A stretch of DNA of 64,000 nucleotides, taken from NCBI GenBank assembly GCA_026388315.1, contig JAPLKA010000037.1, positions 34,259-98,258 of the forward strand. Direction: 5' to 3'. Position numbers and translations under genes: made by a program. The notes beneath the pieces are model-generated. The model had not been told where the DNA came from. It made no database searches and saw only the letters and a list, made by a program, of their open reading frames with translations. The DNA comes from Pseudomonadota bacterium. Its GTDB lineage: Bacteria; Desulfobacterota; Syntrophorhabdia; Syntrophorhabdales; Syntrophorhabdaceae. Shown piece after piece: positions 52,616 through 55,711 of the stretch; positions within the stretch are counted from its first letter, which is position 1; each line of letters starts with the position of its first letter.

Positions 52616-55600
52616 ATGTTCAAATTAACCGGATTCATAATAACAGCCTTTTTTCTCGTAACCATTATAGCGCCTGTATATGCCGGTGCTGAGACAATTA
52701 CAGTTGGCATGTACGGGGTGCCGTCAATAAAGAGCGTAAAGCCTGATACATATCAGAATCAGCTTAAAAAGGCAGGTGTGAATGCTGTTTTTGTGCCTGA
52801 TGATGAAGAAACGATACGGTGGTTCAAGGAGAAGGGCTATAAAGTCTTTATCTCAATGAATGTCTTTGGCGGGACAGGGCCGTGGAAAAAGTACCCGGAT
52901 TCAAGGCCGGTGAAAGAAAACGGTGAATTATTGGAAGAAGGGCATGGAGGGTATGGCGGCATATGCCCAACCCATGAAGCATGGCGGAAAGAGAGTTTAG
53001 ACCATATAGAAAGTGTGTTGAGGCGTTTCGGGGGCAGCGATGGCGTTGACGGGATATGGCTTGATTTCATTCGTTATCCTGGGATGTGGGAAGTGGTCAA
53101 TCCGGATATCCCTGATACATGTTACTGCAAGAGATGCCTGAGTAAATTCTATGAAGACAGGGGTCAAGGGGTCAAGGGGTCAAGAAGGGGTCAAGGGGAG
53201 GGGCGGAATAATTTAGAATTTAGAATTGAGAATTTAGAATTTAATAAAACAAAAGATAGTCAATCACGAATAACGAATTACGAATTACCAATCACGAATT
53301 ACCAATCACCCATCACCCATCACCCATCACCCATCACTAATTACGAATGGATGGTATGGAAAAAGAAGCAGATCGCTTCATTTGTGATAGAGGCTAAGCG
53401 GATCATAGAGCGCTATTCAAAAGATAGGCCCATTAAACTGGGCCTTTTTATTGTTCCATGGACGAAAGGTGAAAGGCAGAACGATATATCTTTTAAGATT
53501 GCCCAGGACGCATTTGAACTATCAAAACATGTGGATGTCATATCTCCCATGGTATACCACAAAATGTGCGGGCAGGATGAATCGTGGGTCAGGAGGATGA
53601 CAGAGTATTACAAAGAGACTGTATCGTGCGAGGTGTGGCCGATTGTTCAGTCACACGATTGTGAGCAGGGCGAATTTGCGAATGTGGTCAGATATGCCGG
53701 AGGGGCAGGGGCTGATGGTGTGCTTGTGCTGTCGTTCGGTGGTATGAAACCGGATTTGTGGAACGGTTTGAAGGCATTTAAAAAACCGAAAAATCTCTTC
53801 CCGGATATCTCACGCAAAGGTGACACTACTAAACACAGTTCACAGTTCACAGTTCACAGTTCACAGCAAGGGGAAGGGGAAGAAGATGTTCACAGTTCAC
53901 AGTTCACAGTTCACAGCCCAGCGCCCAATCACTCAATCACTCAATCACTCAATCACTCATCGTCTATCACCCAGCGCCCAATCACTCAATCACTCTTATT
54001 ACTAAAGACATTTGAGCACTACTATGTGAGGGATGAGTTTACGAGAAAGTCTATAGATGCTGTTGAAATAACGGCTGACTATGGCAGGGAGGGGAAGTGG
54101 GAAGTTGCACTGCCAAAGTGCAGGCCGGGGCAGGAGTATCTTTTTACAGGCTTGTTTTACAGGGATACATTTGAAAACGGAGTGTATGCACATGTAAGCA
54201 TATGGGAGCAGAAGTTCCACATCAATGAACATTTATGGGCAGGCACCTTTCAGCCTATCCGTGTTTACGTGACCTGCCCCGACATATTAAAGGATTCAAC
54301 ATTTAAATTCATTAACAACAATCCAGGAACAACATTTTATATGGCGAAGCCGAAACTGTCAAAGACTGTTCACGGTTCACAGTTCACAGTTCACAGTTCA
54401 TCACCTATAGCCTATAGCCCATTGCCTATAGCCGATCACCTATCACCCATCACCCAGAACCCAATAAACTCTGCAAACTCAATAAACTCCACAAACTCTA
54501 CCTTCTTCCCCATCGGCGTTTATGGTGCGAATCTGAATAACCTGGAAGAGATAAAGAAAATCGGTATAAACACGGTTATTGTTGGTGGCAAAGGCGAAGA
54601 ATTGAGAAAACTCATTCAGGAATGTCGGAGACTTGATTTAAAATACATTCTTTCTGTTCCACATGACCCGGATGAATTGCATGTATATCTGAATGAGGTA
54701 ATCGGAGCGGAGAGCGGAGAGCGGAGAGCGGAGAGCAACCAAATCACTCAATTACTTAATCACTTAATCACCCATCAGCCATCACCCGTTAGCCATGAGC
54801 AAAGAACTATGGGCCATCTTGGATTCTATGTGAATGATGAGCCGGAGATTGTTTCGTTCCCCATGAATAAAGCTCATGACATCCAGAGATTGATAAAAGA
54901 CCGGTTTCCGGAGGCTGCAACGTATATGGCCGTTGTCCGTCCACAGAAGGTCCGCGACTATGCATCGGCAAGTGATTTTTTTATGATGGACCAATACCCC
55001 GTGCCATCAATGCCGATGGTATGGCTTTCAGATTCAATGGATGAGGCTGCAGCAATTGTCGGGAGTGAAAGGATTGTATCCGTGATACAGGCATTCGGCG
55101 GGGGAGAAGAGGCTAAACACGGCTGGCCAAGGTTACCAACAAGACAGGAAATGGAATGCCTGACATTTTTATCCATTGTCCATGGAGGCAGAGGGGTATT
55201 TTTCTTTACATTTTCGGAGATTGGCAAAACAGAAGAAGGAAAGAACGATATTGCACATGTGGTGGGACGACTGAACAAACTGGGTTCATGGCTCACCATA
55301 GAGAATATCATAAAAACAGCGGCCAAGGGGCCAAAAGCTGTTCATAGTTCACAGTTGGCAGCTCACAGTTCATCAGCTATAAGCTATGAGCCAAGTGCCA
55401 TGAGCCAGGATCAGGAGGCTGGGGTCGAGGTTGGTATGCTCTCACCATATGGAATGGATCAAAAGGGCAGACCGGCAATTCATGCCGCAATAAAGAAAAA
55501 GGGTAACCAGTGGCTGCTTGTAGCTGTGAATGTGATTGGTACAAGTGTGGAAGCGCTGATACATACAAATATGGAAAAAATCAAAGCTGCAAGAGAAATC

Positions 55601-55711
55601 TTCAGTGATATGCAATATGGTGTTATTAGTGGCGCCATCCAGGCCCGTTTTAAACCGTACGAAGTAAAAGTTTTCTTAGTAGAAAAGACAAGCGAATATG
55701 TGAATAAGTAA
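52616..55711 (+). CDS. secreted two-domain glycosidase-like protein interrupted by five in-frame repeat islands
   Basis: Signal peptide ending VYA|GA. DGIWLDFIRYP..CYCKRC (GHL-type TIM barrel). Second domain FFPIGVYG ... FYVNDEPE (clan GH-A-like NEP motif). The function call is tentative. Confidence 0.55.
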   Translation: MFKLTGFIITAFFLVTIIAPVYAGAETITVGMYGVPSIKSVKPDTYQNQLKKAGVNAVFVPDDEETIRWFKEKGYKVFISMNVFGGTGPWKKYPDSRPVKENGELLEEGHGGYGGICPTHEAWRKESLDHIESVLRRFGGSDGVDGIWLDFIRYPGMWEVVNPDIPDTCYCKRCLSKFYEDRGQGVKGSRRGQGEGRNNLEFRIENLEFNKTKDSQSRITNYELPITNYQSPITHHPSPITNYEWMVWKKKQIASFVIEAKRIIERYSKDRPIKLGLFIVPWTKGERQNDISFKIAQDAFELSKHVDVISPMVYHKMCGQDESWVRRMTEYYKETVSCEVWPIVQSHDCEQGEFANVVRYAGGAGADGVLVLSFGGMKPDLWNGLKAFKKPKNLFPDISRKGDTTKHSSQFTVHSSQQGEGEEDVHSSQFTVHSPAPNHSITQSLNHSSSITQRPITQSLLLLKTFEHYYVRDEFTRKSIDAVEITADYGREGKWEVALPKCRPGQEYLFTGLFYRDTFENGVYAHVSIWEQKFHINEHLWAGTFQPIRVYVTCPDILKDSTFKFINNNPGTTFYMAKPKLSKTVHGSQFTVHSSSPIAYSPLPIADHLSPITQNPINSANSINSTNSTFFPIGVYGANLNNLEEIKKIGINTVIVGGKGEELRKLIQECRRLDLKYILSVPHDPDELHVYLNEVIGAESGERRAESNQITQLLNHLITHQPSPVSHEQRTMGHLGFYVNDEPEIVSFPMNKAHDIQRLIKDRFPEAATYMAVVRPQKVRDYASASDFFMMDQYPVPSMPMVWLSDSMDEAAAIVGSERIVSVIQAFGGGEEAKHGWPRLPTRQEMECLTFLSIVHGGRGVFFFTFSEIGKTEEGKNDIAHVVGRLNKLGSWLTIENIIKTAAKGPKAVHSSQLAAHSSSAISYEPSAMSQDQEAGVEVGMLSPYGMDQKGRPAIHAAIKKKGNQWLLVAVNVIGTSVEALIHTNMEKIKAAREIFSDMQYGVISGAIQARFKPYEVKVFLVEKTSEYVNK
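53160..53347 (+). repeat. mosaic repeat island 1 (GGGGTCAA, AATTTAG, ACGAATT, ATCACCC arrays)
   Basis: Seen directly. It is translated as GQGVKGSRRGQGEG..LEFRIENLEF..ITNYELPITNYQSPITHHPSPITNY. Confidence 0.9.
53834..53996 (+). repeat. mosaic repeat island 2 (TTCACAG x4, GGGGAA, TTCACAG x3, CAATCACT arrays)
   Basis: Seen directly. It encodes HSSQFTVHSSQQGEGEEDVHSSQFTVHSPAPNHSITQSLNHS. Confidence 0.9.
54368..54500 (+). repeat. mosaic repeat island 3 (TTCACAG, CCTATAG, ATCACCC, AAACTC types)
   Basis: Seen directly. It contains the 23-nt string shared with 42195-42217. Confidence 0.9.
54703..54800 (+). repeat. mosaic repeat island 4 (GAGCGGA x4, AATCACT/AATTACT, ATCACCC types)
   Basis: Seen directly. 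It encodes GAESGERRAESNQITQLLNHLITHQPSPVSH. Confidence 0.9.
55338..55407 (+). repeat. degenerate repeat island 5 (TTCACAG-like, AGCTATA/G types)
   Basis: gttcatagttcacagttggcagctcacagttcatcagctataagctatgagcc. Confidence 0.7.

Follow-up and report, generated by a model that had tools for sequence, protein, structure and literature searches.

Chained modules of short tandem repeats form in-frame islands in a glycoside-hydrolase-like gene of a Desulfobacterota bacterium

Introduction

Heptamers are the most over-represented class of long simple sequence repeats (SSRs) in bacteria (PMC4679880, PMC4692102). The TAACTGA repeats (MacGregor 2015) comprise stop-bearing 'forward' sets, which are mostly intergenic or overlap the ends of open reading frames (ORFs), and 'reverse' sets, which alone lie in the interior of ORFs, one of them within a surface loop; in Beggiatoaceae and Microcystis, heptamer sets are also mixed with other heptamers (PMC4679880). 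The GGGNATC repeats of Xanthomonas and Nostoc (Rehm 2015) are distributed genome-wide with a marked preference for about four units (PMC4692102), and the Rickettsia palindromic elements (RPEs) are selfish DNA inserted in-frame in many genes (PMC10969869). Here we describe a 64,000-nt stretch of contig JAPLKA010000037.1 (GenBank assembly GCA_026388315.1, positions 34,259 to 98,258, forward strand; hereafter the window, from whose first nucleotide all positions are counted), in which a gene for a predicted exported, glycoside-hydrolase-like protein remains open through five islands of chained 7-8 nt tandem arrays. Relative to orthologues, the islands are insertions that are specific to certain lineages and placed in loops or linkers, and they probably represent dispersed heptamer-array modules that have been filtered by selection for frame and orientation and are translated as disordered loops.

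The closest likeness is to the heptamers of Beggiatoaceae and cyanobacteria, termed short tandemly repeated repetitive (STRR) sequences or long SSRs. As in those systems, tandem 7-nt units in 2-6 copies are over-represented and dispersed across the window, comprise several unit types, occur in mixed sets, and lie inside ORFs only when stop-free, with stop-bearing arrays at gene ends or upstream (PMC4679880). Indeed, the units ATCACCC and CAATCACT are shared with cyanobacterial sequences, where they are adjoined by AGTCAGG. The present host, however, appears to be Desulfobacterota/Syntrophales-like from its orthologues and gene context, whereas the original definition of STRR refers to a (heterocystous) cyanobacterium; there are many units in place of one dominant unit; and the arrays are mostly inside genes, in contrast to a predominantly non-coding location. 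Moreover, five multi-array islands share one functional gene here, and their positions are conserved across relatives while their content turns over.

The modules resemble RPEs in being dispersed near-identical repeats that enter unrelated conserved genes in-frame, at positions compatible with the fold, and add a peptide segment. RPEs are palindromic elements of ~150 bp with a conserved peptide, similar to miniature transposable elements with inverted repeats (MITEs), whereas the modules described here are tandem-heptamer blocks of ~33 nt that lack hairpin potential, are chained in variable order and encode non-conserved peptides. With GGGNATC repeats they share the preference for about four units (4.1-5.1 here), but the units are mostly not G-tracts and the arrays are mostly coding. 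The small dispersed repeats (SDRs) of Nostoc punctiforme (Elhai et al. 2008) are reportedly mobile repeats of 21-27 nt without an identified transposase, which are said to insert within each other as well as within tandem repeats of heptamers; unlike the modules here, SDRs are reportedly not tandem arrays themselves.

The preliminary description of this DNA considered several mosaic arrays per gene to be an undescribed pattern. This holds only in part: ORF-internal stop-free heptamers and mixed sets are known from Beggiatoaceae and Microcystis (PMC4679880), whereas we found no literature report of the density and positional conservation seen here. Specifically, no description was found of a constrained gene of which ~21% consists of five multi-module islands, of the same loops being recurrently colonised across a protein family, or of a Desulfobacterota-like genome in which heptamer blocks of ~33 nt are copied whole. 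In an incomplete library, a search for heptamer repeats in Desulfo- and Syntroph- taxa gave no relevant paper among the matches listed.

Results

Five islands within a constrained gene

Arrays were called with Tandem Repeats Finder (TRF), which locates chained arrays of 6-9 nt units at five places in the gene. The host gene and its islands are as follows.

52616..55711, + strand: host gene; 1031 codons in the ORF listing, open through all five islands.
53159..53348, + strand: Island 1, residues ~182-244 (TRF); arrays AGGGGTCA x4.6, AATTTAG x4.9, AATCACG/ACGAATT and ATCACCC.
53834..53995, + strand: Island 2, residues ~407-461, interdomain linker (TRF); arrays CACAGTT x4.7, AAGGGG x2.5, GTTCACA x4.1 and CAATCACT x9.
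54368..54501, + strand: Island 3, residues ~585-629, interdomain linker (TRF); arrays GTTCACA x4.7, CCTATAG x4.3, ATCACCC x3.1 and AAACTCTAC x4.
54705..54800, + strand: Island 4, residues ~697-729, loop in the second barrel (TRF); arrays GAGCGGA x4.6, AATCACTT x3.8 and ATCAGCC/ATCACCC x4.9.
55340..55407, + strand: Island 5, residues ~908-931, linker preceding the C-terminal beta domain (TRF, 73% matches); decayed GTTCACA and CATGAGC arrays, corresponding to a decayed GTTCACA + CCTATAG module pair.

The ORF contains no in-frame stop, and TRF reproduces the island coordinates and units of the preliminary description to within 1-3 nt. The peptides HSSQFTVHSSQ and SPITHHPSPITNY and the flanks CYCKRC and WMVWKKKQIASF quoted there are all present in the translation; HSSQFTVHSSQQGEGEEDVHSSQF and SPITHHPSPITNYEW are further examples of island peptides. 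In total, the islands account for ~21% of the gene, or about one fifth of the protein.

The product is identical to MCX5815387.1, from a metagenome-assembled genome labelled Pseudomonadota, and carries a signal-peptide-like N-terminus, from which export is predicted. It matches Glyco_hydro_42 in Pfam (35.8 bits, E 7.9e-9, cutoff 21), and an AlphaFold2 model built with 96 homologues comprises two (beta/alpha)8 barrels together with beta domains. Foldseek searches with this model return GH66, GH13 and GH42 enzymes as well as the C-terminal domain of PgaB, each with a probability of 1.00. The barrel fold and the family similarity mark the protein as glycoside-hydrolase-like, in line with the earlier view of a secreted glycosidase-like gene, the activity itself being a prediction. 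Outside the islands, dN/dS is 0.21 relative to the orthologue in L021 (dS 0.24) and 0.08 relative to that in L079, as expected for a functional gene under purifying selection. Homologues are found in Desulfobacterota, Syntrophales and relatives. The host genome was absent from the GTDB representatives scanned, and a scan of Joint Genome Institute (JGI) metagenomes detected no identical population variant.

Insertion into loops and linkers

Both in a 12-sequence and in a 96-sequence orthologue alignment, the columns that hold the five islands are filled by <20% of the sequences, and typical orthologues measure 840-900 aa compared with 1031 aa for the product described here. The AlphaFold2 model has a predicted template modelling score (pTM) of 0.84, with 660 residues at a predicted local distance difference test (pLDDT) score of >=90 and the sequence beyond the islands mostly >90. 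Excepting the last four residues, pLDDT drops below 50 only at 186-211 and 221-236 (Island 1), 403-457 (Island 2), 588-627 (Island 3), 702-704, where residues 700-730 of Island 4 form a block at pLDDT 53-58, and 903-935 (Island 5), such that the low-confidence segments coincide with the five islands. Other lineages bear unrelated low-complexity inserts at residues ~164, 193, 270, 352, 404-419, 557-585, 696-703, 815, 901 and 988, all of which are loops or helix/strand ends in the model. As insertions, the islands are specific to certain lineages and positioned in loops or linkers. The alternative raised in the preliminary description, namely that they are selfish DNA tolerated within surface loops, or else linkers that are hypervariable, agrees with the orthologue alignment, with the structure model and with the dispersed copies described below.

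In the closest relative, P0002 (European Nucleotide Archive ERZ1426827), islands are present at all five sites, but with units and lengths unlike those of the window. Clear islands with differing units and lengths are likewise found at sites 3 and 4 of P0003/L079, where the other sites carry merely short inserts. L021, which covers residues 1-354 only, also contains Island 1 with other units and another length, and shares just its right-hand part with the window at a dS of 0.24. With only that part shared at such a small synonymous distance, turnover is far quicker in the islands than at synonymous sites. A 63-nt (21-aa) in-frame indel at the site orthologous to Island 2 distinguishes L001 from L079, which are 99.97% identical, and is either a frame-preserving polymorphism or a collapsed repeat.

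Across the orthologue loci, arrays are abundant only in L079/L001, in Desulfacyla L033 and in the Desulfatiglandales L012 and L034, and are absent from most others. We note that the metagenome-assembled genomes L012 (2867-2936) and L034 (2812-2877) harbour 9-nt arrays of ACAGGATTA followed by the reverse complement ATCCTGTAA, forming potential hairpins directly upstream of the orthologous gene, within which 9-nt arrays also yield in-frame ADY repeats.

The arrays are dispersed modules of ~33 nt

Short tandem arrays are ~8-fold commoner in the window than in shuffled sequences. Exactly doubled 7-mers occur at 27 loci, with 21 distinct units, against 3.6 loci in shuffles, and exactly doubled 8-mers at 7 loci against 0.8. 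Near-perfect arrays span 26-36 nt with a mode of 33 nt and contain 3.2-5.1 units (~4.7 being typical); several arrays with 7- and 8-nt units match perfectly, whereas the longer TRF rows, such as CAATCACT x9.1 and x8.1 and AATCACG x12.4, are interrupted, with 70-83% matches. An origin of the ~33-nt length as a k-mer artefact of assembly was considered and rejected: imperfect modules of the same size pass unchanged through assemblies with k=31, and collapse at a common final k was judged to yield longer arrays. Most arrays in the window lie inside long ORFs, and those beyond the five islands are as follows.

11077..11110, - strand: intergenic 34-nt copy of the AATTTAG module, the reverse complement of that in Island 1.
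40743..40775, + strand: GTGGCTGGTGGATA array, providing the TAG stop of ORF 39771..40757 (TRF).
41142..41174, + strand: ACCAGCC x4.3, at the 5' end of the hexapeptide-transferase ORF 41138..41776.
41662..41690, + strand: GGGCAAG/GGGCAAT array, in-frame, near the 3' end of the hexapeptide-transferase ORF (TRF).
42195..42224, + strand: copy of the CCTATAG module, directly upstream of the DegT start codon.
42621..42653, + strand: AACTCAA x4.7, in-frame in the DegT aminotransferase gene 42235..43503 (TRF).
43104..43165, + strand: GCCCTTA + CCCATAG arrays, in-frame in the same DegT gene (TRF).
55700..55727, - strand: CAATTACT-type array in reverse orientation, reading AGTAATTG x2.4 on the + strand (TRF 55707-55725).
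55956..56055, + strand: Island W1, GCGCAGG + TTTCACC arrays, in-frame in the Wzy_C/TPR gene 55785..58043 (TRF).
57297..57448, + strand: Island W2, GTTCAAG, GCGCATG and CAATCACT arrays, in-frame in the same Wzy_C/TPR gene (TRF).

Several of the arrays are near-identical copies of one another. The 34 nt of the AATTTAG module in Island 1 (53210-53243) match the reverse complement of the intergenic copy at 11077-11110, 42 kb away, at 33 of 34 positions, including an odd third unit (AATTGAG versus AAATGAG). Similarly, 54404-54426 in Island 3 is identical over 23 nt, odd unit CCCATTG included, to 42195-42217, 12 kb away, with 26 of 30 positions shared over the longer interval (54404-54433 versus 42195-42224). 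Junctions between arrays are also shared: Islands 3 and 5 have a common GTTCACA-to-CCTATAG junction (44 nt at 86% identity), and W2 has the junction GCGCAACCACCAATCACTC in common with Island 1 of L021, which belongs to another gene and another genome. The Logan contig L102 (ERR15302187) matches the window with 100% identity as far as the AATTTAG module (53242), beyond which it continues into sequence foreign to the window (7008-7135) with an inverted copy of the AATTTAG module 78 nt on. Further copies of the module therefore exist elsewhere, and the tail itself may represent another genomic copy, a chimeric join or a gene-disrupting structural variant. Thus, the arrays are dispersed modules of ~33 nt and not products of local slippage alone.

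Searches with island peptides mostly retrieve short spurious ORFs over arrays from many taxa and indicate only that the units are widespread. ATCACCC and CAATCACT units are found in Cronbergia and other cyanobacteria, Deinococcus, Desulfatirhabdium, Desulfonatronum and Lysobacter, and ATCACCC-type arrays lie in-frame in TsaE and an ATPase of other organisms.

The arrays in the DegT gene are also additions relative to homologues, and the Wzy_C gene repeats the pattern of the host gene at two sites. The array at 42621..42653 forms a 10-aa insertion in DegT compared with PDB 7b0d, and 43104..43165 encodes a segment that is extra with respect to both paralogues and PDB homologues. At the W1 site, GCGCAGG units in the window are matched by GCGCATG units in L079, which suggests, from the sequences, inheritance followed by homogenisation, while the W2 site of L079 contains different repeats of ~170 aa.

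The retention of the five sites in the window and P0002, more weakly in P0003/L079 and for Island 1 in L021, together with the complete change of content at a dS of ~0.24 and the 21-aa in-frame length polymorphism in a predicted exported protein, could also be read as adaptation, with low-complexity peptides being selected as flexible spacers or as variable epitopes against phage or grazers and the repeats generating the variation. We regard this as unlikely. The same modules are present, in both orientations, in cytoplasmic enzymes and intergenic DNA; the island peptides conserve neither composition nor length; most orthologues function without islands; and Island 5 is decaying through point mutation. 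An adaptive role of the loops is not needed to explain the data.

Frame and orientation are filtered

Over the seven coding islands of the host and Wzy_C/TPR genes, the host frame contains no stop codons, whereas ~14 are expected from composition-matched shuffles. The other forward frames are mostly stop-bearing, with the exception of Island 2, in which all three are open, and all three reverse frames of every island bear stops. Correspondingly, about two thirds of the coding-strand units contain TGA, TAA or TAG in their reverse complement. Three arrays have a cyclic stop on the + strand, and none of them is internal to a coding sequence, each lying either beyond one or at its extreme end: AGTAATTG at 55700-55727, which CAATCACT arrays match on the reverse strand, contains the TAA stop of the host gene, as read directly from the sequence; GTGGCTGGTGGATA at 40743-40775 supplies a TAG; and TAAATTC at 11077-11110 lies just upstream of ORF 11109..12257. 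The orientation and frame of the coding arrays are thus filtered. We also considered whether the variant units attGag in the AATTTAG array and cccattg in the CCTATAG array had arisen by removal of an in-frame TAG in situ. This was rejected because the intergenic copy at 11077 and the copy at 42195 carry the same variants, which are part of the module.

The position of the islands exactly between conserved segments would suit intervening sequences that are removed by RNA excision, translational bypass or protein splicing, although this offers no direct support. Excision from the RNA would make an open frame through every island needless, and RNA fold z-scores of -1.8 to +1.95 are no better than those of shuffles, which also speaks against MITE-like hairpins or a structured excised RNA. 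Because no such structure, no Rfam family in the window and no intein-like Pfam domain were found, we consider removal of the islands highly improbable.

Outside the islands, two inverted pairs of arrays were observed. The arms at 40743-40775 (left) and 41142-41174 (right) are 33 nt long, 85% complementary and 366 nt apart; those at 41663-41686 and, in the CCTATAG-family module, at 42201-42224 are 24 nt long, 88% complementary and 514 nt apart. Both pairs bracket gene junctions, the left arm lying at the 3' end of the first gene and the right arm at the 5' end of the following one, and could pair as long-range stems in mRNA or delimit cassettes. No inverted arms were found within the coding islands, inverted array pairs in the window occurring only across intergenic spacers.

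Consensus unit numbers are stable in the arrays covered

Sixteen Logan contigs encode an identical upstream protein, and the six of these that were compared with the window are 100% identical and gap-free wherever aligned; L107 is 99.9% identical and also gap-free. The six contigs end within or ahead of Island 1, four of them inside its arrays. Logan contigs are built as k=31 graphs, consistent with the observation that these assemblies break only within perfect arrays of >=31 nt. The segments that they cover at 43104-43165, identical in L101, and at 53159-53300 have no indels, and 57331-57448, within W2, is unchanged in L107, likewise without indels, despite six single-nucleotide differences elsewhere. 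In the arrays covered, consensus unit numbers are therefore stable. The six differences, the sole mismatches between the window and L107 over 6.2 kb, are all T/C and cluster within 41 nt (62149-62189) of a 524-aa ORF on the - strand (61412..62986) that has no Pfam match.

These data bear on the proposal of the preliminary description that the gene is a slipped-strand contingency locus, in which units of 7 or 8 nt added or lost during replication change the reading frame, turning the enzyme on or off in a subpopulation. The locus resembles the contingency loci of Haemophilus and Neisseria in having non-triplet tandem units, with uninterrupted tracts, inside an ORF for a surface-related product, here a predicted exported polysaccharide-related protein within a surface-polysaccharide cluster. 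Heptanucleotide tracts can drive phase variation in Haemophilus (PMC8262952), and 7-nt indels are seen in intergenic heptamer sets among close Cyanothece strains (PMC4679880). However, the near-perfect tracts here, of ~4-5 units, are too short for hypermutability, and in place of one tract near the 5' end there are ~15 independent tracts that reach the 3' end. If each were hypermutable, the ON state would be rare with so many tracts in one gene. The known heptamer switch of Haemophilus is said to contain 13 or more units. Furthermore, the same arrays occur in housekeeping-type enzymes (the pyridoxal-phosphate aminotransferase DegT and the hexapeptide transferase) and in intergenic DNA; the arrays covered by the seven consensus assemblies (L101-L107) show no unit-number difference; and the sole length polymorphism seen, that between the relatives L001 and L079, amounts to 63 nt and stays in-frame. 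Minority unit-number variants are invisible in consensus assemblies, for which reason the argument falls short of a formal refutation, but a phase-variation switch is not supported and appears very unlikely.

The breaks of k=31 assemblies in perfect arrays, the departure of L102 from the locus after the module and the possibility that the L001/L079 difference is a collapsed repeat might also point to an assembly artefact, with repeats being collapsed or chimerically joined. Yet the frame is restored after about nine islands in three genes, for which the chance is estimated at ~(1/3)^9, imperfect arrays are reproduced base for base by independent assemblies from three run-accession series, and relatives from other data sets have homologous islands, leaving next to no probability for such an artefact.

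Gene neighbourhood

The host gene lies within a polysaccharide-biosynthesis cluster, as judged from its neighbours, which encode sugar transferases, DegT aminotransferases, an epimerase and a Wzy_C-like protein. Directly upstream, 49559-52573 encodes a 1004-aa fusion of a Bac_transf sugar transferase, a CoA-binding domain, a Polysacc_synt_2 dehydratase and a C-terminal response-regulator receiver; this gene contains no repeat arrays, although it adjoins the gene that the arrays have colonised most heavily. The look-ups made for 58040..58588 and 58566..59039 gave no matches. In P0002, three toxin-antitoxin pairs flank the orthologous gene (PhdYeFM/PIN, an unassigned 82-aa ORF beside PemK, and PhdYeFM/ParE), no such pairs being present in the arrangement of the window.

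Other repeats were also noted in the window. A 226-nt direct duplication (13901-14126 and 16202-16427, 93% identity, 2.3 kb apart) covers the 3'-terminal part of ORF 13117..14145 and the sequence immediately following ORF 14355..16193. Short dispersed repeats at 8204-8246/10555-10597, 10463-10506/10840-10883 and 8907-8934/46169-46196 (-)/47542-47569 comprise 43-44 nt at 77-86% identity as well as exact stretches of 18-28 nt. They are located in and around 8.0-11.1 kb, a region without a + strand ORF of >=150 aa but with ORF 9161..9613 on the - strand, and in the spacers between genes on either side of the middle DegT gene (46287..47465). In L021, positions 164-202, upstream of the orthologous gene, match 10507-10545 of the window, 42 kb from the gene, which suggests at the sequence level either another gene order or a common dispersed element in L021.

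Discussion

We suggest that the islands are chains of dispersed ~33-nt modules, each with ~4.7 tandem copies of a 7-8 nt unit, that would spread genome-wide through a copy mechanism and land anywhere. Purifying selection would then keep only those insertions that fall in permissive loops or linkers, in a stop-free orientation and with the frame restored, and the surviving islands would pass through transcription and translation to give disordered, low-complexity loops that affect the fold little. After seeding, islands would turn over quickly by module addition, slippage and conversion, and for this reason island position, but not content, would be conserved between relatives. We infer that the modules arrive whole and that the islands are selectively near-neutral. 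Taken together, STRR-like modules filtered for frame and orientation provide the likely explanation of the locus.

Several points weigh against this explanation. For the modules, neither a transposase nor a target-site duplication nor terminal inverted repeats were found, and because of this the term 'mobile' has the dispersed near-identical copies as its whole basis, with the copies being drawn from 64 kb of the genome. The arrays are strongly clustered, with ~15 in the 3.1-kb host gene and none in the 3-kb gene upstream, and therefore require either unequal tolerance or preferred insertion beside existing arrays. The maintenance of island positions across relatives could also mean that the loops are useful. 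In addition, perfect arrays of >=31 nt fall outside the coverage of the k=31 assemblies, whose contigs break there, and translation of the islands is a prediction from the open frame.

A bolder possibility, which we consider doubtful, is that the ~33-nt modules constitute an uncharacterised class of very small mobile DNA that is suited to genes and served by a dedicated enzyme. Their gene-suited design would consist of one stop-free strand, at least one open frame, a length of ~11 codons and variant units that remove an in-frame stop. Such elements would be shared horizontally among Desulfobacterota, cyanobacteria and other bacteria, and would build mosaic islands by nesting preferentially beside existing arrays. 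If this were true, the size rule of ~4.7 units, irrespective of unit sequence, would reflect the copying mechanism rather than G-quadruplex formation.

Returning to the explanation by STRR-like modules under selection, the host gene is a tractable case of repeat families coexisting with coding sequence, and suggests that about one fifth of a functional, constrained enzyme can be translated repeat DNA. The repeated colonisation of the same loops across lineages provides a natural map of permissive insertion sites, and long low-complexity segments in Desulfobacterota proteins may accordingly be repeat insertions and not domains, a point to be borne in mind during annotation. Both the shared modules and the size rule of ~33 nt are signs of a copying mechanism. 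If this mechanism is real, the idea of selfish DNA within genes, developed for RPEs, would extend to free-living bacteria and to elements five-fold smaller.

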